Shown: piece after piece, positions 27,129 to 38,144 of the stretch
Numbering within the stretch: position 1 is the first letter of the stretch
How the letters are laid out: each line of letters opens with the position of its first letter
Assembly (NCBI GenBank): GCA_039811685.1
Contig: JBDHZC010000002.1
Coordinates: 256,001 to 320,000 of the forward strand
Reading direction: 5' to 3'
Length of the DNA: 64,000 bases
Origin: Armatimonadota bacterium
GTDB lineage: Bacteria > Armatimonadota > UBA5829 > DSUL01
Made by a program: the position numbers and the translations under genes
The notes under the pieces: generated by a model
Told to the model about the DNA's origin: nothing
The model's database searches: none
Seen by the model: only the letters and a program-made list of their open reading frames with translations

Positions 27129-30100
27129 CTACGGATTGAGAGCTACAATGTCGGCTGCGCTCTGCACACGCACCACCCGCTGAATCTCTCCCTGATCCAG
27201 AACACACGAGCTGATCCCCGTGACAACAACTGTGGAACCAACAACCGGCAGCGCTGCGGATTCAAGCAGAACCCTGACGCCTTTCTGGCCGGATATGTCC
27301 TGAACACTGGAGCCGTCGGACACATAGAAAACGCCCTGCCCCGCGGAGACGACACGGCCACACACCCGCACCAGCAGGCCGACGTTGTTGAGTCCAAAAC
27401 CACCCGATACACCGGACTGACCCGCGCCGGACACCGCAGAAAAGGCCAGGTCCGCTCCGCCAAGCGTCTCCAGACGCATCACGAGTGACCCTGCCGCCCC
27501 CTGTCCGCTAACTGTGACAGAAGAAGCGATGACCTGCTTTTCCTGGTCAGGCGTCGTCTGCACCGTACCGCTGACTGAAACAAGCGCTCCACGCGCCAGT
27601 CCCTGCGGCATTGAGGCGACTCGGAGTCCAGCGGCCCGGCTGGCGCTCTGGATGTAGAAATACTCGGGGAACACAGCGGTCACAACAGCGCTCGGGATAT
27701 TCACGGCAGTGCCGTTGCTGGACATTCGCGCCGACTCCACGGACACGGCAACCACTGCGACATATTCGTCACTGCCAATATCCACAGAACTCCCTTGAGG
27801 CCGCGCCTGGCCGTCAAGATCGGACGCGGGGATATCGGGCGCCTGTGGCCAGGCGGTGTCAATACACGGAGAACCGGGCGCCAGGTGGTAGTCTCGAACG
27901 GACGGATTGACGAATATGGGATTCAGTTGGATGTCGCCTGTTCCGGGAACCGCCATGTCCGTGTAGTTCACCCCACCCGGATTGTAAACGCAGTTGCTGC
28001 GCAAAACTGCCGTCGTCCCCGCGTTGCCGGAGACACCGGAGGAGTTCAGAGCGACGATATTGTTGGCGACGGCTCCACTCGCGGGCAGCACAAGCGCGGC
28101 TGCTCCTGCATTTTGCGCCAGTGTGTTGTTCACTATGTTTGCAGAGCCCCCGGCGCAGTACAGACCCCCGCCAGAGGTGGCGGCGGTGTTGTTAGCCACA
28201 AGGTTTCCCGCGATAATCAGACTTCCCTCCGCTGCGTAGATGCCTCCGCCCGACCCCTGCCCGGCCGTATTTGAGACAACAGTGTTTCGTTCCAGCCGCG
28301 CCGACGCTGGAGACTGCAGATAGATTCCTCCGCCAGACCGCGCGCCGTTGCCAGAAACGGTGTTTCCGGTGATTTCTCCCCGGAAGCTTACGCCAGCGAT
28401 GGCCCCGCCATTAGCCCCGGCTCCGTCTGAGCTGTTCCCGCTGAAAATGTTATCCACGATACGCGCCCCCGTGGACACACAGTAAACTCCCGCGCCGGAG
28501 CCTGTCGCCAGATTTCCCGAGATGTCGCAATTAGAGATAACAGGGTCTGTTTCAGAGGCGACAATGCCCCCGCCGTTACCGGACGCCCCGTTGTTCGTGA
28601 TCCGGCAGCCCGTAATAGCGGGGGTGGAGAAGGTCATGCCGATGCCGCCTGCTGCGCCGCCTGAATAGTTGGCGCTGAGGACGCTGTTCTGGATAACCGG
28701 CGAGGAGTAGTAGGCAAAGAGCCCGCCGCCAGTATAGCTGGCGGTGTTGGCTGTAATGTTGCAGCCATTGATGAGAGGCGAGGACATCAGACAATAAATC
28801 CCCCCTCCAAAGACCGCCATGCCGTTTTGGACTCGAAAACTATCGAGCGTACACGTTTCAAATCCCGGCGCGGAAAAGATGACGCCAGTCGCCAGGGAGT
28901 CTGCATCAATTACGGACGGGCTTGGAGAGCCTGCAGGACGCTCAGAAGGCGCAGTCTCACTACCGGCAAAGCCGCCAAACAGGTGAATGTAAGGTTGCTG
29001 GACAGTCAGATTTTCAATGTACTCCCCGGACGCCACCCAGATGTCACCGCCAGTGACAGCAATCTGCGCGAGCGCGGCTGTGATGGTCCGCTTAGGGTGC
29101 GCCCAGTCTACCCCGCTGTTCGAATCCGTTCCAAACGGGGCCACACGCACGACTGCGGGTGAGAAGGTTCGCACCACTCCGTCGGATTCATCAGCCCCGA
29201 TATCCACCGCACCGCCAATAACACGCTGCTGTCCGTCAATGTCTGTCCAACCAGGCTGGATGAAAACTCCGCTGCCTGCGTCTTTGCACGGAGAATCCGG
29301 CTGGATGTGTGCCTCTCCACGCGCAGGGCTCACCAGGCGGGGATCCGAAGCGATGTCGCTGGCTGCTGCGGCGAGGCCTGAATAGTCATAGCGAGCAGGG
29401 TTGTAAACACAGTTGTGGCTGAGTGTTGGAGTTCCCGGGCTGATTGTCCTGTAGATGCCGCTTGAGTTGAGCGCGATGATGTTGTTGGCCAGATTGATCT
29501 GCGACCGGTCCAGCGCAATGCCACCGCCTTCCACCCCCGTACCATTGGCAACCACCGTGTTGTTCACAATGCTGAGCGCCGCAGTGCAGTTGTCCACACT
29601 CAATCCACCGCCTGAGTTAGCCGCGCTGTTGGCGTCAATGACGTTATTAGCGACCAGTCCGCTGGCAGCGCTCAGCCAGACCCCGCCTCCGCGGCTTCCT
29701 GAAGAGTTGCCCCTGATGACATTGTTGGTGACCAGCATTGGTCCTGTGCAATAAATCCCTCCGCCACCGCCAAGCGCGGAGCTTGTGTTGCGCACTATCG
29801 TATTGCCGGTTACCTGGACCGTCGAGGTTGCGTTGATGCTGATGCCCGCGCCTGTGCCCGCGAAGTTGCCCGTTATGGTGTTATTGGCGATGACCGGTGT
29901 GGCTCCGGCACAGGCGATGCCGCCGCCCGATGTCGCATAGCCATTCGTGAGTGTGAATCCATCCAGCCTGGAAGACCCGGCAGAAGGTGGGATTGTCACC
30001 ACCGATCCCGAGGCCATGCCGTTGATGACGACAGGGTGGAGTTTGATGTTTCGCTGTAAGATGGCGGTCTCAGTGCCGGCGAAACCTCCGTAAATCCACA

Positions 30101-30329
30101 CGTTCCTGGGTACTGTGATGCGCTCGAAGTACTCTCCTTGCGCCACCCATATCTGCTCACCCTCCGGCGCAATGGCCAGAGCCGCCCCTATCGTGCGCCG
30201 GGCAGCTATCCAGGAAAGCCCGGACGCCGAATCATTACCCGTCTTTGACACGTAGATCGTGGCGTGGCAGGGTAGAATCAAGGTTGAGATGACGGCCACC
30301 GCCGGCAGAAGTCCTTTTCCCACGGTCAT
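27129..30329 (-). CDS. Large secreted parallel beta-helix (pectin lyase-like) repeat protein, two modules, with the shared C-terminal domain
   Basis: Signal peptide; duplicated IYVS..GNDS..G.SW / IWVA.GEY.E unit; GGGI and N-x-I-x-x-N repeats; SPC.DAG...D.DG..R......DIGADE twice. Confidence 0.85.
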   Translation of the reverse strand: MTVGKGLLPAVAVISTLILPCHATIYVSKTGNDSASGLSWIAARRTIGAALAIAPEGEQIWVAQGEYFERITVPRNVWIYGGFAGTETAILQRNIKLHPVVINGMASGSVVTIPPSAGSSRLDGFTLTNGYATSGGGIACAGATPVIANNTITGNFAGTGAGISINATSTVQVTGNTIVRNTSSALGGGGGIYCTGPMLVTNNVIRGNSSGSRGGGVWLSAASGLVANNVIDANSAANSGGGLSVDNCTAALSIVNNTVVANGTGVEGGGIALDRSQINLANNIIALNSSGIYRTISPGTPTLSHNCVYNPARYDYSGLAAAASDIASDPRLVSPARGEAHIQPDSPCKDAGSGVFIQPGWTDIDGQQRVIGGAVDIGADESDGVVRTFSPAVVRVAPFGTDSNSGVDWAHPKRTITAALAQIAVTGGDIWVASGEYIENLTVQQPYIHLFGGFAGSETAPSERPAGSPSPSVIDADSLATGVIFSAPGFETCTLDSFRVQNGMAVFGGGIYCLMSSPLINGCNITANTASYTGGGLFAYYSSPVIQNSVLSANYSGGAAGGIGMTFSTPAITGCRITNNGASGNGGGIVASETDPVISNCDISGNLATGSGAGVYCVSTGARIVDNIFSGNSSDGAGANGGAIAGVSFRGEITGNTVSGNGARSGGGIYLQSPASARLERNTVVSNTAGQGSGGGIYAAEGSLIIAGNLVANNTAATSGGGLYCAGGSANIVNNTLAQNAGAAALVLPASGAVANNIVALNSSGVSGNAGTTAVLRSNCVYNPGGVNYTDMAVPGTGDIQLNPIFVNPSVRDYHLAPGSPCIDTAWPQAPDIPASDLDGQARPQGSSVDIGSDEYVAVVAVSVESARMSSNGTAVNIPSAVVTAVFPEYFYIQSASRAAGLRVASMPQGLARGALVSVSGTVQTTPDQEKQVIASSVTVSGQGAAGSLVMRLETLGGADLAFSAVSGAGQSGVSGGFGLNNVGLLVRVCGRVVSAGQGVFYVSDGSSVQDISGQKGVRVLLESAALPVVGSTVVVTGISSCVLDQGEIQRVVRVQSAADIVALNP

Positions 30330-30540
30330 TCCCCTTTTGCGGATGAGAGACTGGAGAGGCCACACCAGCCAGAAACACCCGTTCACGCATGCTAAGACAT
30401 CCCTGCCCAAAAGTCCAGAGCAGGCGCGGCATTCAGAGGAGGCAGGCTGGCGGAGGGCATGAGTAGAAGAGGCAGGTGGGCCAGGGTTCTGTGTGAGAGG
30501 CTCCCGCGCCTGAGAGTGACATACGGAAGGCAGAGTTCAA

Positions 30541-31272
30541 ATGAAGTTGAGAGCCGTGTTGACCGCACTGAGCGTCCTGACAGCGTTAGTGATGACAGAC
30601 GTGTGGGCTGCGCCAGCGCCCGGACAGATTCCCGTTACCTGGAAAACGCTGAGTGCGCAAAAGAAAGGCCAGTGGACAGCAAAGATCGTCTATCCCAGAT
30701 TTGGTGGTGATAGTCCTCTGGCAATAACAGCTAACAAAACACTGGAAGAAGCGTCTCGAAAAGCGCTGGATGAGTTTCGAACAGAGGCGGAAGAGAACTT
30801 TGACTCCAGAACCGCAGTAGCGGCGTTTGAAACAGAAAGCCTCACTGTGCTCAGTGTGGCAACAGAGCAGATCATCAGTCTGTATATCCGGACCTATGAG
30901 TTTACGGGAGGCGCGCACCCGAACACCTTCTACCAGCCGATGACTTTTGGGTATGCAAACGGGAAAGCCAGCCGGTTGAAGTTGCAGGATCTGTTCAAGA
31001 AAGACGTCAACGCGCTGCAGATAGTTTCCGAGCTGGTCATTCCAAAGCTGCGCAGTCTCAACGCGTCTGCAGTCACCGATGGTGAGGTCACTGCGTTGAC
31101 GCCGCAAATGGCCGAGAGCTTTGTTGTCACTCCGAACGGACTGACGTTCCTGTTTGAGCCGTACGCGGTTGGCGCCTATGCCGAAGGCAGCTTTTTCGTG
31201 AAGATTCCCTTTGCGGACTTGCGAGCCAATCTGCTTCTCGGCGGCCCAGCGGATTTTCCATTGAAGGCGTAA
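30541..31272 (+). CDS. Secreted DUF3298/DUF4163 (RsiV/PdaC-like) protein
   Basis: Signal peptide; YEFTGGAHPN; L.L.DLF; FEPYAVGAYAEG. Confidence 0.85.
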   Translation: MKLRAVLTALSVLTALVMTDVWAAPAPGQIPVTWKTLSAQKKGQWTAKIVYPRFGGDSPLAITANKTLEEASRKALDEFRTEAEENFDSRTAVAAFETESLTVLSVATEQIISLYIRTYEFTGGAHPNTFYQPMTFGYANGKASRLKLQDLFKKDVNALQIVSELVIPKLRSLNASAVTDGEVTALTPQMAESFVVTPNGLTFLFEPYAVGAYAEGSFFVKIPFADLRANLLLGGPADFPLKA

Positions 31273-31325
31273 AGGCTCCAAGCTTACTGGATGCAGGTCA
31301 ACAGCGCGCCTGCAGAGCCGGGGAC

Positions 31326-32138
31326 TCAGGAATGCAGGCGAAGTGCGGACACAGCAACATCCGGACGGTCTGTGGCGAAAGATTGCACCCCAAGCTCCAC
31401 AAGCAGACGATAGACACCGGGATCGTGCCCGAGCTCGCCCATGGGAAACGCCTGAAACAAGATGCCTCTTTCACGCAATTCGTCCCCTGTGAGGCGCAGA
31501 AAATCCGGCTGAGGAGAGAACGCAGATGAGGAGCTGTTTTCAGGCCGCCGCACGTGAATCTGAAGCTGGGAGATCCCGGCAAAGCTCTGGGCGCGCGACT
31601 CCCGCAGACGCTCAGACAGATACTCCTCGGAACCACCGAGCCACAGCAGAGTCTTTGCGCCGGGCGCAACCAGAGACCAATCTCGAATCACGGCGTAATC
31701 CGTCGAGGCGACGATGCACTGTCTGAGCGCGCCCTTCGCCTGGCAAAGCGCAGCAAGCTCAGGAAGCGGCGCATGCTTGATGTCCAGATAGATCAGCCGA
31801 CCAGAGGACGCGCGAACTTCCTCGAGGACACTGGCAATGGAGGGCGTCTTCTGGCCGCGAAAGGACTCCCCCAGATACAGCCCGACATCCATGCAGGCGA
31901 CTTCCGGCCACGAAAGAGCTTCGACTCCCAAAGGCCGCCACTCATCCGGAATGCCAGTTGGGATGCGCTGACAGTTGGAGTCGTGAAACGCGACAAGCAC
32001 TCCGTCTGCGGTGGCGCGGACATCGGCCTCAGGAACGGTTCCCATTTCCCATGCCAGGCGGAACGATTCCAGAGTGTTCTCCGGTCCCAGGTCTCCAGCG
32101 CCCCGGTGAGACTGAATCAGCACGACATGCCGGCCCAT
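31326..32138 (-). CDS. Glycerophosphodiester phosphodiesterase family protein
   Basis: SHRGAGDLGPENTLESF, EADVRATADGVLVAFHD, FATDRP. Confidence 0.88.
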   Translation of the reverse strand: MGRHVVLIQSHRGAGDLGPENTLESFRLAWEMGTVPEADVRATADGVLVAFHDSNCQRIPTGIPDEWRPLGVEALSWPEVACMDVGLYLGESFRGQKTPSIASVLEEVRASSGRLIYLDIKHAPLPELAALCQAKGALRQCIVASTDYAVIRDWSLVAPGAKTLLWLGGSEEYLSERLRESRAQSFAGISQLQIHVRRPENSSSSAFSPQPDFLRLTGDELRERGILFQAFPMGELGHDPGVYRLLVELGVQSFATDRPDVAVSALRLHS

Positions 32139-32186
32139 TTCAGCGTCCCGGCCGCGGGAAGGCCGGGACGCCAGAGGTTGCGGTGC

Positions 32187-33356
32187 CTAGATCTCGGACG
32201 TGCTGACCCAGCGGCGCTCGCGAGATGAGCGCGTGACAGCTTCCAGCACTATCTGGCACTTCAGGCCATCCTCAAAGTCTGCGTGCGGGTTCTTCCGGGT
32301 CGCGATGCCCGTCATAAGCTCATACACCTGATGCGTGAACGTCTGCGCCCAGCCGATTATGTGCGCAGGCGGCCACCACGCGTGCATCCACGGATGAGAG
32401 CCTTCCGTCGTCTGAATTACCCGGAAGCCCTGGCGGTCGCCGGGGTCGCTGCGGTCAAAGTACTCCAGCTCGTTCAGACGCTCAACATTGAAACGGATCG
32501 AACCTTTGTCCCCGTTGATCTCGAAAGTGTTGCCATTGCGATGACCGGCGGCGAAGCGCGTCGCTTCAAACGTGCCCACAGCGCCATTCTTGAACTTCAC
32601 GAGGAAAAGGCTGGCGTCGTCAACGGTCACTTCGCCCTTCTCTGACGACCCGGCCGCCGTCAGGCCGCCGGTCGTTGCCGCCAGCTTCGGACGCTCTTTG
32701 ACGAAAGTCTCCTGATGCCCGACAACCTCGTCAATATCCCCCACGAGATAGTGTGCCAGATCGATCGAATGCGCCGCAAGGTCGCCGTGCGCTCCTGACC
32801 CGGCGACATCGCCCTGCAAACGCCAGACAAGCGGAAAGTCCGGGTCAATGATCCAGTCCTGAAGATAGAACCCTCGCCAGTGGAATATGCGCCCGATCTT
32901 TCCTTCGTCAATGAGCTGCTTTGCAAAGCGGATAGCGGGCACAGCGCGGTAGTTGAAGTTGACCATGTTGATAACGCCGGCCTTCTTGACGGCATTTACC
33001 ATTTCACGAGCCTGGGCAACATTCATCGCCAGGGGTTTTTCGCAGAAGATATGTTTGCCTGCCTCCGCTGCGGCTATGGCCATTTCGTGATGAACGTTGT
33101 TACCGGTTGCAATGTCAACCAGACCGATGTCGCTTCGCTGTACCAGGTTGCGCCAGTTTGTCTCGTACTCGTCCCAGCCAAATTGCTTCTGCGCCTCGGT
33201 GACACCCTTCTCATCGCGACCACAGATGACTTTCATGCGGGGTCTGGGCTTAACATCCGGAAAGTAGAAGGCGACATCCCGGAAGCCTTGACTGTGAGCC
33301 TTTCCCATGAACTTGTAACCTATCAGACCGACATTGATCTCTTCAGCCAATTCCAT
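32187..33356 (-). CDS. Gfo/Idh/MocA family oxidoreductase
   Basis: VGLIGYKFMGKAHS, CEKPLA, YLQDW, GDLAAHSID. Confidence 0.93.
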   Translation of the reverse strand: MELAEEINVGLIGYKFMGKAHSQGFRDVAFYFPDVKPRPRMKVICGRDEKGVTEAQKQFGWDEYETNWRNLVQRSDIGLVDIATGNNVHHEMAIAAAEAGKHIFCEKPLAMNVAQAREMVNAVKKAGVINMVNFNYRAVPAIRFAKQLIDEGKIGRIFHWRGFYLQDWIIDPDFPLVWRLQGDVAGSGAHGDLAAHSIDLAHYLVGDIDEVVGHQETFVKERPKLAATTGGLTAAGSSEKGEVTVDDASLFLVKFKNGAVGTFEATRFAAGHRNGNTFEINGDKGSIRFNVERLNELEYFDRSDPGDRQGFRVIQTTEGSHPWMHAWWPPAHIIGWAQTFTHQVYELMTGIATRKNPHADFEDGLKCQIVLEAVTRSSRERRWVSTSEI

Positions 33357-33504
33357 ACCTCCTCACTCCGGCCACACCGGAGACGCATAACCTCAAGTCT
33401 TTGGAATCCAACCACACCAGCGCCCTGTCAGCGCTGGCGCCGTGGAGAACTCTGTTGCACCTATTCCGACACAAAAGCCGCGACATCCTCCCTTGCCACA
33501 CGAA

Positions 33505-33536
33505 GAAGCCCGGCGTCAACGCGACCGCCGGGCTTC
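33505..33536 (-). terminator. GC-rich hairpin terminator after the foldase gene
   Basis: GAAGCCCGGCG / CGCCGGGCTTC 11-bp stem, 25 nt after the stop. Confidence 0.6.
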
Positions 33537-33560
33537 CTCCAGAACTTATCTGCCTGCGCT

Positions 33561-34784
33561 CTACTTGGTGGGAGCAGGCGGCGGTGGCGGCGGAGCCTCT
33601 GTCCCGCCGGAGCCGTTGCCAGTGGCCGGTTTGGGTTTTGGCGCTGGCGCAGGCTTGGGCGCGGGTGGCGGTGTGGGCGTCATAGCAGGCGCGGGCTTCG
33701 GGTTTTCTCCGACGTAGCGCGTTGTCTTCTTGACGCAGTCCTCTTTCACACGCAGATACCAGGCCGTCATCTCCGGACGCAGTTTTTCGTCTGTAATCCG
33801 CTTCGTCAACTCGGCCTTTTCGGCAGGCGTCGCGTCTTTGCCCAGCTTCTCCACCTGAATCAGGTGGTAGCCGTAGTTGGTCTTGACCGGTTCAGAGATA
33901 TCGCCGGGTTTCAGAGCAAACGCCGCGTTGTCAAAATCCGCAACCATAGTGCCGCGCTTGAACCACCCCAGGTCGCCGCCCTGCTGCTTACTGCCCGGAT
34001 CGTCCGAGTGCTCCTTGGCAAGCTCGTCAAACTTCGCTTTACCGGCCAGAATCTCCGCTTTCCAGTCCTCGAGCTTCTTCTTGTTGTCTTCTTCGCTCTT
34101 GGCTTTTTCTTCAGGCGTGTTGCCGGAAGTGCTGAGCAGAATGTGGCGCGCCTTGATGTACTGAGCCAGGTCCTGATCAGTCACCTTGATACTCTTGGCG
34201 GCAGCTTTTTCGACGTAGATATTTGTCTTCAGCTCATCCCGAAGCTGCTGATCTGTCAGGTTGTACTGGCTCTTGAACTGGTCGAAGGTCATGCCCTGCT
34301 GAGCCACACGGCCTTTCAGCTCATTCACCTTCTCGTCAATGTCAGCCTTGGTAATCTGCACACCCTGAGCCTGCGCGGCCTGCTGCACACAGGCCTTGTC
34401 AATGAGCTCGCTGGTGAGACTGACCGCGTAGCGCTGCCACGCGGCATTGTCCACCTGACCCTTGGTAATCTTCTGAGACCCGACTATCGCCACGACGGTC
34501 GAGGCAGGCGCGCTGGCTGTAATCGGCTTCTTCGGCGCAGGTGTAGCCGGTTTCGCTGCAGGCTTGGCGGCGGACTTTGCAGCCGGTTTTGCCGCAGGTT
34601 TGGCCTTCGGCTTGGCAGCAGGCTTGGAAGCTGCAGGTTTGGTGGTGGACTTGGCCGCCGGTTTGGCGGTTGTGGTCTTGGTCGCAGGCGTAGATGCCGC
34701 AGCCCAGACAGCGGTTTTAGTGGCTGGTAGCGAGGCGAGCCCCAGTGTCAACGCGGTCGCCATCCATAGAGATGCCCTACACAT
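33561..34784 (-). CDS. Parvulin-type peptidyl-prolyl isomerase/foldase (PrsA/SurA-like) with Ala/Lys/Pro-rich N-terminus and Pro-rich C-terminus
   Basis: [43 protein letters not shown]; start taken at MCRASLW, which gives a signal peptide. Confidence 0.9.
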
Positions 34785-35123
34785 AGGCGTAAACGTGCTC
34801 CTCTCTGAAGCAGACTTCAGGACTTTGTTGCGTAAGTCGCATAGTAGCTGATCAGTTGCGCATAGCGCGCAAAAGGCATAGGCTAGCCGCCCAACGCCAG
34901 ACAGCCGGACAGTATTATGCCCCACAAACCCGCCTTGTGCATAGTCTATAGCGGAATTTGGGATAATTCCTCGTGAAACCAGAGTCTGCTGATCGCGACG
35001 TGAGCGACACAAGCATTACGAACAGATATCCCGCGCCGGTTCCGGCAACCGCCAGCTTTGCGCTGGTGCTACAATACAGGCAGCTTCGAGTCCGTGGCCT
35101 CACTGCATAACACACCAGCCATC

Positions 35124-36272
35124 ATGAAAAAACGGGACAAAGCCATCATAGACAACTGGCGCGAGGAGATGCGGGCTGCGCAGACGTACGAGACTCTCGG
35201 TAAGGTAGAAAAGGACCCACACCGCAAAGCGCTCTTTCAAGAGCTGGCTGAGATGGAGAAGAAGCACGCCGGGATGTGGGCCCAGAGGATGGCGCAGCTT
35301 GGCATTCGCCAGCCGCCTCCGCCACCGGGACGCCGGGCCAAAGTGTACCGGCTCATGGCAAAGCATCTGGGACCGGTACGCATGCTGGAGCGCATTGAGA
35401 AGGATGAGCGCCATCACGCGCACGAGTTTCAGCGGCAACTCAAAGAGATTCACGAGGACGACGCCGTCATCCTAAGAGAGATCGCCCACGATGAGAAAGA
35501 CCTGACCAGACGGCTGCACCACGCTGTCTCGGAATCCAGGGAACAGGGCGAGCTCAACTACCTTCTTCACCGGGAGAAGTGGCACGTCAAAGGCGGAAGC
35601 TGGGTGGCGGACGCTATCTACGGAGTCAATGATGGGCTTGGCGCGGTGTTTGGCATCGTGAGCGGAATGGCCGGCTACACGGGAGGCAGCGGACTTGTGC
35701 TGGTTGCCGGTCTGGCCGGTATGCTGGCAAGCGCCCTCTCAATGGGCTCAAGCGCGTATCTGGCGGCCAAATCCGAAAAGGAAGTCATCGAGTCAGAGCT
35801 TGCTCGCGAGCGCGAGGAGATCCTCGAAGAACCCGAAGAAGAGCGCCGGGAACTGGAGCTGATCTACAAGCTGAAGGGTTTCTCAGATGAAGAGGTCGAT
35901 ATCCTCGTTGACCGCCTGAGCAAGAATCCCGAAGACATGCTCAGCACTCTGGCGCACGAGGAGCTGGGTATCTCCCACTCTTCCGCGCCGAATCCCTGGA
36001 CCAGCATGTTCTCATCTATGATCTCCACCGCTATTGGCGCCTCTGTCCCACTGATCCCGTTCTTCTTCACGACGGGCATGCCGGCTGTCGTCGCCGCTCT
36101 GGTAATCAGCCTGATGGCTCATTTCGCCGTAGGCGCGCTCAAGAGCCTCCTTACCACGCGCCACTGGTTTACCTCAGGCCTCGAGATGACCTCTGTCGGA
36201 GTCATTGTCTCAGTCGCCACCTACATCCTGGGAAGGCTGCTTGGACAGGCGGGGCTCCCTGGCGCAGGCTAG
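35124..36272 (+). CDS. Rubrerythrin/ferritin-like plus VIT1/CCC1 fusion (MbfA-like iron exporter)
   Basis: N-terminal E...Y...ELAEMEKKH; C-terminal DAIYGVNDGL, ALSMG, HEELG VIT1 motifs. Confidence 0.88.
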   Translation: MKKRDKAIIDNWREEMRAAQTYETLGKVEKDPHRKALFQELAEMEKKHAGMWAQRMAQLGIRQPPPPPGRRAKVYRLMAKHLGPVRMLERIEKDERHHAHEFQRQLKEIHEDDAVILREIAHDEKDLTRRLHHAVSESREQGELNYLLHREKWHVKGGSWVADAIYGVNDGLGAVFGIVSGMAGYTGGSGLVLVAGLAGMLASALSMGSSAYLAAKSEKEVIESELAREREEILEEPEEERRELELIYKLKGFSDEEVDILVDRLSKNPEDMLSTLAHEELGISHSSAPNPWTSMFSSMISTAIGASVPLIPFFFTTGMPAVVAALVISLMAHFAVGALKSLLTTRHWFTSGLEMTSVGVIVSVATYILGRLLGQAGLPGAG

Positions 36273-36453
36273 GGCAAAAGCCACGCAAATCTCTCACCGC
36301 CCTGTCCGGACCCGCTCCGAGCCTGTCACGCCGCTGCATCGAAACTACACCACTAACCTCACATCCCCACGAGAGAGGGAAAAATTCTTTTATCTTTTTT
36401 CACAGGTCTGTTGCACTGACAGGAATTGACAGTGTCAGCGCCTACACTGGAGA

Positions 36454-37025
36454 CGTGGGGGAAACAATCGGGCCAAACGACGCGCCTGGACCAGCCCATC
36501 GTGTCAGTTGTGGCCCCTGGCAGAAAGCCTCGACCTGCGCAACCCGTCTGCCACGTATGCAGATGGGACTCCCCCCACGCACGCAGCGGAGAGCCTCTGC
36601 GACTGGCGTCAGTCGTAAGCGTTACGGCCGAAGAGGAGCCGCAGCCTTTACCACTGAGTGTTGGAGGTGGAGCCTGGCACTGAGCGCAAGGGCTGCTCTT
36701 TATTCTTCGGCTCAGAGGTAGCGGGCTGACTGGCCGCGGCGCTGCCCGGATTCACAGCAGCGCACACGAGTGAGCGCCAGAGGCACAGCCTGAGATGTCC
36801 GGCAGGACGGTTGTCGCGCGGCAGGGGGCGGCGCCGCCCGCCGGGCGGCGGGGACGTGAAGCCGCCTGCGATGCGCTGAACGCCTGAAGTGTGCAGCCGC
36901 TATTTCGTGACTGGGCAAATGGCGCCACGAGCGCGTCTTGACCTGAGCGCGCGTTCACGTGTGGCACACCCGGCGATGCAACCGCACTCTGGAATGTCAC
37001 CAACGAGCGAGAGACGTTGCGGTGG
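36454..37025 (+). ncRNA. Candidate large structured non-coding RNA, family not recognised
   Basis: No credible ORF in a 765-nt gap between convergent genes; more than 10 nested helices whose wobble pairs are G-U on the + strand; TACACT at 36443-36448 just before helix 1. Confidence 0.55.
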
Positions 37026-37037
37026 GAGAAGAAAAGT

Positions 37038-38144
<1,107 letters not shown>

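Follow-up and report, generated by a model that had tools for sequence, protein, structure and literature searches.

A candidate regulatory RNA and a family-private promoter-like element in an intergenic gap of an Armatimonadota genome

Does the gap between two convergent genes of an Armatimonadota bacterium (GenBank assembly GCA_039811685.1, contig JBDHZC010000002.1) encode an RNA of its own, and of what kind would that RNA be? The gap measures 765 nucleotides (nt) and occupies positions 36273-37037 of the 64,000-nt stretch of DNA analysed here (positions 256,001 to 320,000 of the contig; hereafter the window), where it separates a rubrerythrin-VIT1 fusion gene from a MalK-type ABC transporter ATPase gene. 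The original prediction, made from the letters alone, had proposed a + strand structured RNA of about 570 nt (36454-37025) in the size class of the OLE and ROOL RNAs. Our analysis led to a smaller element, which is probably an orphan small RNA controlled by a regulator. With moderate confidence, we read the gap as encoding a stand-alone + strand non-coding RNA that would be transcribed from an activator-dependent promoter, start near 36455 and have its 5' 330-380 nt as the main species. We infer the strand, the start point, the dependence on an activator and the function of this RNA. The genome is the only member of its genus, and its family has five further genomes in two genera.

Parts of the gap were found in 20 of the 24 public sequencing runs listed. 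Six RNA libraries contained 33-54% of the sampled words of the gap. DNA runs contained all 765 nt, and a further group of them (X6-X14) contained 80-95% of the words. Contigs from four RNA runs, which are metatranscriptomes of four studies (X15, X17, X18 and X19), were compared over 35800-37600. All four runs yielded a contig of 300-400 nt lying wholly within 36462-36839. Those of X15 (36466-36789, 324 nt), X18 (36471-36792, 322 nt) and X19 (36474-36773, 300 nt) were wholly inside the gap. That of X17 matched 36462-36839 with 378 of its 400 nt, the remaining 22 letters being adaptor sequence that abuts 36462. A second X15 contig covered 36850-37034, next to the stop codon of the ATPase gene. 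The same four runs gave no contig of at least 99% identity on 35800-36461 or 37035-37398, although uncovered parts are uninformative in such a comparison, and contig pieces at 37422-37596, with three to five differing letters, came from the ATPase genes of other organisms. Where contigs from different studies end at similar positions, this hints weakly at an end of the RNA itself. Together with the DNA runs that contain the whole gap, these contigs are most simply read as a discrete RNA of about 300-380 nt. The predicted size of about 570 nt was not supported; the contigs extend from 36462 to 36773 or at most 36839, and the 3' 230 nt of the proposed RNA fold like shuffled sequence.

Directly upstream of these contigs, the + strand carries a promoter-like architecture, consisting of a tandem direct repeat and a -10-like hexamer, TACACT, that ends 14 nt before the left end of the RNA. 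Written as CTGACAG-N5-GACAG-N10-TAnnnT, the element has three copies in the genome, one ahead of the RNA, one ahead of a cas3-cas5d operon and one ahead of a DUF3276 gene. Across 61 genomes, it was found in all six members of the family and in one of the 55 others, and a reversed-pattern control gave no matches. A relaxed search of the genome itself returned five matches, three of them clear, and the reversed genome returned none. The only piece of the gap that could be aligned with relatives was 36408-36434, which carries the tandem repeat. In five of five relatives, a copy of the element follows the orthologous ATPase gene and is directed toward its 3' end. Between the -10 hexamer and the stop codon of the ATPase gene there are 68-69 nt in one of the sister genera and about 153 nt in the other, compared with 590 nt in the present genome. 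One relative (G001) has two further copies, each 60-95 nt ahead of a protein gene that has a ribosome-binding site; therefore, the orientation of the element is the productive one.

The original prediction had placed a start site just downstream of TACACT. This part was borne out, in that the hexamer belongs to a conserved promoter-like architecture pointing along the + strand, and judged from this conservation it is very probably a real -10 element. The tandem repeat is likely a putative activator binding site that stands in for a -35 element, and the "TTGACA" that precedes the hexamer by only 11 nt, which is not sigma-70 spacing, is half of this putative site. An AT-rich tract further upstream may serve as an UP-like element. 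Given the usual distance of 7 nt after a -10 hexamer, transcription is expected to start at about 36455. The contigs have their left ends 14-26 nt past the hexamer, that is, 8-20 nt past the predicted start. A + strand RNA starting near helix 1 of the original prediction is therefore likely, and the upstream element agrees with it. The 5' strand of that helix (36454-61) lies outside every contig.

All 13 pairs of helix strings named in the original prediction are present in the DNA at their positions. Compared with dinucleotide shuffles, the full interval 36454-37025 gave a z score of -1.99 on the + strand (1 of 100 shuffles as good) and -0.23 on the - strand (45 of 100), and the interval bounded by the contigs, 36462-36792, gave -2.22 (2 of 150) and -1.34 (14 of 150), respectively. 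The signal was unevenly distributed. The + and - strand scores were -4.73 (0 of 200 shuffles) and -2.07 (5 of 200) for domain 1 (36454-36579) and -3.01 and -3.57 (0 of 200 each) for domain 2 (36593-36719), values that are flattered toward the low side because the domain borders were chosen on the helices. Domain 3 (36720-36795) was not significant (+ strand z -1.21, 21 of 200), and 36796-37025 gave -0.01 (104 of 200). A blind sliding scan with 126-nt windows had only two standouts, 36595-36720 (+ strand -3.1, - strand -3.6) and 36469-36594 (-2.3 and +0.1). The background of 284 windows from 30001-36048 had a mean z of 0.08 with a standard deviation of 1.21 and included four windows at or below -3. 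Among these regions, the intergenic window 33487-33612 reached -4.2 on the + strand and -3.1 on the - strand; therefore, such z values are not unique to the RNA locus. This neighbouring segment, which lies between the PPIase and oxidoreductase genes and folds far above shuffles on both strands, is probably a terminator or another RNA element.

The helices are thus real, and about 250 nt fold above chance, the signal lying in the first 266 nt of the proposed RNA, whereas the 3' half does not. The expectation of a fold better than shuffled controls held for 36454-36719 and failed for 36720-37025. Individual hairpins were 2-6 kcal/mol more stable on the + than on the - strand. The argument that the non-Watson-Crick pairs betray a + strand RNA through G-U pairing lost its force. 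A strand-neutral count of the five single mismatches flanked by Watson-Crick pairs gave one G.T, one A.C and three of other kinds, and these unbiased cases are too few to give the argument weight. Nested helices that look convincing in GC-rich DNA can be part real and part chance, and what is real here is settled by the conserved promoter and the RNA libraries rather than by the fold.

The direction of the conserved promoter, the better folding of the + strand, the energies of the hairpins and the adaptor at 36462 favour the + strand, which we assign to the RNA with good but not full confidence. The 22 letters in the X17 contig are what we take to be the read-2-side Illumina adaptor. In a dUTP-stranded library this adaptor marks the 5' end of the RNA, and it would thus indicate the + strand if X17 was made in this way.

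What weighs against this reading concerns the promoter, the ends and the strand of the RNA as well as the conservation of its body. A scan for sigma-70 sites found none on either strand, and the tRNA promoters of the genome, by contrast, fit sigma-70 well (TTGACA-17-TATAAT). The left end at 36462, 14 nt past the -10 hexamer, is about 7 nt beyond a normal start. A terminator scan found no + strand terminator-like site near 36773-36839, and the only one on this strand, at 36682-36698, lies inside the contigs and corresponds to the chance rate (1 found, 1.1 expected). The contigs carry neither strand nor level, and contig depth, which was 8.4, 40.1, 4.9 and 12.6 for the RNA and 2.1-2.9 for 36850-37034 and the ATPase-gene pieces, cannot rank abundance. 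On the - strand, a hairpin (36516-36470, -21.6 kcal/mol) is followed by GAUUGUUU, the last U of which is position 36462, exactly where the X17 contig meets its adaptor. This arrangement looks like an intrinsic terminator placed behind the ATPase gene, for which no other terminator-like site was found between 37037 and 36462.

Such a site would suit a minus-strand species. This would be the stable, terminator-ended 3' part either of a long 3' untranslated region (3'UTR) of the ABC ATPase operon mRNA, in which case no promoter is needed, or of a transcript driven by a weak promoter near the gene's end; cleavage at about 36790-36839 would produce one of its ends, and the other would be at 36462. 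In its favour, the X15 contig at 36850-37034 places RNA-library sequence beside the ATPase stop codon as well. The last bases of the ATPase coding sequence also contain TTGACA-17 nt-TACTAC on the - strand (37069-37041), and the X15 contig end at 37034 is 7 nt past it. This match may represent a weak promoter of the minus strand or have arisen by chance, and TACTAC is without the final T of a -10 hexamer. We regard a minus-strand origin as unlikely because the conserved promoter architecture points the opposite way and ends 14 nt from the left end of the RNA, the - strand has the weaker fold and the weaker hairpins, a GA separates the stem from the U-tract, which is itself interrupted, and the adaptor type suits a + strand RNA under the library convention given above.

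The body of the RNA showed none of the conservation of its promoter. A covariance model of 36470-36719, built from the single sequence with 81 base pairs, found only itself at E <= 0.1, without a match in any of the 60 relatives or 150 phylum genomes searched, and with filters off it gave only chance-level matches at the syntenic loci of the sister genera. A BLAST search of the gap against 40 relatives returned a single 27-nt GC-rich match, in one of them. No homologue could be aligned, and hence no covariation supports any helix. Two RNA runs carry the single-nucleotide polymorphisms (SNPs) C36628A and G36636A, both located in domain 2. The former breaks a C-G pair (partner 36710) without compensation and the latter converts a G.U pair to A-U; the variant allele is 5-7 kcal/mol less stable on either strand. 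The idea of a conserved structured family thus found no homologue in the relatives, in the phylum or at the syntenic sites, and one of the two SNPs breaks a helix. The RNA is an orphan known from one species, with no detectable relatives.

A widespread class of large structured RNAs of the OLE or ROOL kind, whose relatives are too divergent for such searches to find although their fold is conserved, is accordingly very improbable here. Domains 1 and 2 do beat shuffles, RNA contigs recur in several studies, and the absence of a matching known family would make the class a new one. However, this proposal has to face the failure of the covariance model in relatives, phylum and syntenic loci, the 68-153 nt that sister genera have where 590 nt are found here, a 3' half folding no better than chance, a helix-breaking SNP and contigs of 300-380 nt, below the size class.

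The same contrast between a conserved promoter and a body that is not conserved would also be expected of a by-product, in which the promoter fires into lineage-specific junk DNA and GC-rich hairpins merely make the RNA long-lived. The variation of the spacer from 68 to 590 nt among genera and the uncompensated SNP are consistent with this, as is the nature of the extra DNA, which is single-copy (a search of the gap against its own genome with nhmmer returned only itself) and for which no source was detected. A decayed gene or paralogue was considered as a source and rejected, as six-frame translations of the gap gave nothing below E 0.05 against the genome. Folding of domains 1 and 2 above chance, with an asymmetry toward the transcribed strand, argues against a by-product, which we consider improbable; it overlaps with the regulator-controlled small RNA that we prefer and differs from it only on whether the product matters.

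None of the known RNA families accounts for the locus. Across the 64-kb window, no Rfam model scored at or above its gathering threshold, and at E <= 10 the region 36200-37150 gave only two chance matches (15.5 and 14.8 bits), in agreement with the original prediction that no known family would be recognised. Canonical copies of RNase P RNA (C4:238335-238753, 230.5 bits), transfer-messenger RNA (tmRNA; C2:702184-702570, 184.7 bits) and 6S RNA (C4:98721-98916, 52.3 bits) are located elsewhere in the genome, and these candidates were rejected. ARAGORN found 48 tRNAs in the genome and none in the gap.

The gap was also predicted to hold no credible open reading frame (ORF), and the searches agreed. 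The 12 ORFs of at least 20 amino acids (aa) in 36440-36860 are not protein-like and resemble off-frame reads of GC-rich DNA. Of four gap ORFs searched against Pfam, three gave nothing at E <= 1 and the fourth scored below the cut-off (16.5 versus 26.6 bits). By these sequence searches the region is non-coding. If the transcript were a small-protein mRNA, a candidate frame would be one of 88 aa at 36455-36721, or an internal ATG-started part of it of 55 aa. The frame covers domains 1 and 2 almost exactly and SNP C36628A is synonymous in it; against this, its GTG start lies upstream of every RNA contig, a ribosome-binding site at a workable distance is missing, the peptide is rich in Arg, Ala and Pro like an off-frame read of GC-rich DNA, SNP G36636A is non-synonymous, and there is neither a Pfam match nor a homologue among 5.8 billion proteins. 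We therefore give a small protein hardly any credence.

The preferred explanation can be put as follows. An activator, probably of the response-regulator type, would bind the tandem repeat and recruit RNA polymerase to TACACT, and transcription from near 36455 would proceed toward the convergent ABC ATPase gene, approaching it from its 3' side. Hairpin 1, hairpin 3, domain 2 and perhaps also domain 3 would form in the first 330-380 nt, up to about 36790-36839, and this part would survive as the predominant RNA. Longer forms reaching about 37034 may exist. In the sister genera, where the promoter is 68-153 nt from the ATPase stop codon, a transcript must run antisense into the ATPase gene. From this arrangement, the ancestral and conserved role is most likely antisense or convergent-transcription control of the sugar-import ATPase. 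With the spacer expanded to 590 nt in the present genome, the structured 5' part may itself act as a small regulatory RNA. It is speculative whether the C-rich stretch that links domains 1 and 2 serves as a pairing seed.

The other copies of the element hint at a wider regulatory setting. The cas3-cas5d copy (C2:646462-646494, - strand) is directly ahead of a type I-C-like operon with the Pfam families Cas3_HD, DEAD, Cas3-like_C_2 and Cas_Cas5d. The third copy (C13:26256-26288, + strand) is followed after about 190 nt by a DUF3276 gene of 94 aa, which would have a long 5' leader at this spacing. The genes on the other side of the element copies encode a small membrane protein and, judged by eye, a penicillin-binding protein. 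The promoter type shared with the cas3-cas5d operon and the DUF3276 gene suggests a common signal. In G001, the two further copies (C1:2076541-2076573 and C1:2552375-2552407) precede genes for a 260-aa protein of unknown family and for a membrane protein of 266 aa that looks ankyrin-like by eye. As these genes differ from those found here, membership of the putative regulon varies between genera except for the ATPase-adjacent site. It is tentatively conceivable, though doubtful at present, that the family has a private signal-responsive regulon of which the non-coding RNA gene, opposed to a multi-purpose sugar-transport ATPase gene on the latter's 3' side, is the one constant member, and that in this genome the gene has grown to a structured RNA of about 350 nt co-induced with the type I-C CRISPR-Cas operon and a PUR-alpha-like nucleic-acid-binding protein. 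If true, sugar uptake and phage defence would be linked through one regulator and one RNA.

The genome has CRISPR arrays with at least 19 repeats at C2:636986-638258 and 10 repeats at C13:11018-11655. A link of the RNA to CRISPR by sequence was rejected, because an 11-nt identity between 36972-36982 and the CRISPR repeat was a matter of chance (32% of 300 shuffles as high). The coordinates of the features are listed in Table 1.

Table 1. Features of the gap and of the two genes that border it (positions in the window).
Feature	Position	Strand	Remarks
Rubrerythrin-VIT1 fusion gene	35058..36272	+	Assigned by Pfam; lineage-specific neighbour
AT-rich tract upstream of promoter-like element	36380..36402	+	Similar stretch in the same relative place in sister genera
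Tandem direct repeat CTGACAG-N4-TGACAG, 10-bp period	36416..36432	+	3 exact sites in the genome versus about 0.03 expected
-10-like hexamer TACACT	36443..36448	+	Exactly 10 nt past the repeat; TAnnnT at the same distance in 14 of 14 sites in 7 genomes
RNA left-end zone	36455..36474	+	Contig starts 36462, 36466, 36471 and 36474; start predicted at about 36455
RNA core	36462..36792	+ (inferred)	Four contigs from four studies
Hairpin 1 (GGGCCA.../...TGGCCC)	36470..36516	+	-23.6 kcal/mol on +, -21.6 on -
Hairpin CCCGTCTGC/GCAGATGGG	36543..36567	+	-14.2 kcal/mol on +, -10.8 on -
C-rich linker between domains 1 and 2	36566..36592	+	Unpaired in the fold if the RNA begins at 36462
Domain 2, small hairpin and long imperfect arm	36593..36719	+	Only part clearly above chance in the blind scan
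Domain 3 hairpin	36720..36795	+	Ends of three of the four RNA contigs (36773, 36789, 36792) lie at or within the closing helix
Tail without folding signal	36796..37034	unassigned	Partly covered by RNA contigs (X17 to 36839; X15 36850-37034)
MalK/MsmK-type ABC transporter ATPase gene, convergent with the RNA	37038..38144	-	Pfam ABC_tran, OB_MalK, TOBE_2

The two bordering genes have different histories. The ATPase gene has orthologues of 83-84% identity in four of the relatives (G001-G004) and is present in two pieces in the fifth (G005). In the relatives, it is followed by PPIase and oxidoreductase genes on the same strand, which correspond to 33561-35012 and 32190-33362 of the window. The VIT1 fusion gene was not detected in any of the five relatives from the family. 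In species genomes, the best matches to it had 43-44% identity (10 loci, at most 44%; Alicyclobacillus), and 27 loci in metagenome contigs had at most 37%, none being a close relative; no related gap can therefore be retrieved through this neighbour. In the relatives, the conserved promoter element and the PPIase gene adjoin each other; here the fusion gene separates them, and it looks like a lineage-specific insertion. In G004, a 473-aa ORF that resembles the sulfatase family by eye is inserted at the same ATPase/PPIase junction (on C1, 5366-6787 of the locus), and different genera have thus acquired different cargo at this junction. A 616-aa ORF at 32880-34730 (+ strand) matches no Pfam family. 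It is very probably spurious, as it lies opposite the PPIase gene (33561-35012, - strand) and the GFO/IDH/MocA oxidoreductase gene (32190-33362, - strand), two genes with orthologues in all relatives.

Among the papers listed on Armatimonadota and non-coding RNA, titles and abstracts contained no report of a regulatory RNA. The present RNA would be a first candidate regulatory RNA in Armatimonadota, with a family-private promoter type and a possible regulatory link to CRISPR-Cas. It also offers a concrete and testable case, since it recurs in wastewater metatranscriptomes and appears to share its control with a CRISPR-Cas operon.

Among known systems, OLE, ROOL and GOLLD RNAs resemble the RNA described here in being intergenic, non-coding, multi-hairpin RNAs of unknown function that are present in RNA libraries. 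These classes, however, are defined by deep conservation of an intricate fold, and have about 550-800 nt with structure throughout. The RNA of the gap is roughly half their size or less, with contigs of 300-378 nt and a 36796-37025 segment that folds like its shuffles; it matches no Rfam model even at E <= 10, and no homologue was found for it, hence no alignment for covariation. The inference of an OLE or ROOL size class thus fails on model match, size and conservation. Small RNAs derived from 3'UTRs, such as CpxQ and SroC, share the terminator of the upstream mRNA. Were the RNA on the - strand, it would resemble them by lying directly downstream of a gene, ending at a hairpin and U-tract and having no promoter of its own. 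Here, the conserved promoter has the opposite direction, and small RNAs derived from 3'UTRs are typically much shorter.

The layout of the promoter resembles that of class II activator-dependent promoters of the OmpR/PhoB family, of which Pho boxes and the cyanobacterial HLR1 element are examples. In both, a pair of hexamer-like repeats occupies the same face of the helix and immediately precedes the -10 element at a fixed short distance. The promoter of the gap differs in the sequence and distribution of the repeats, which are private to one family of Armatimonadota; a reading as a Pho box was rejected, as no phosphate-regulon gene adjoins any copy. Stand-alone small RNAs driven by response regulators include the OmpR-dependent OmrA and OmrB of enterobacteria, which are roughly 90 nt long. 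Compared with them, the RNA of the gap is 3-4 times longer (330-380 nt), shows no intrinsic terminator at its 3' end on its own strand and is known from a single species. It has in common with them a putative promoter of its own directly upstream, in which a tandem repeat of about 10-bp period replaces the -35 element, a discrete intergenic transcript without coding capacity, and a promoter type that also drives a few protein genes. The RNA is therefore neither of the OLE or ROOL class nor a member of any Rfam family, but an undescribed RNA that works like a regulator-dependent stand-alone small RNA.

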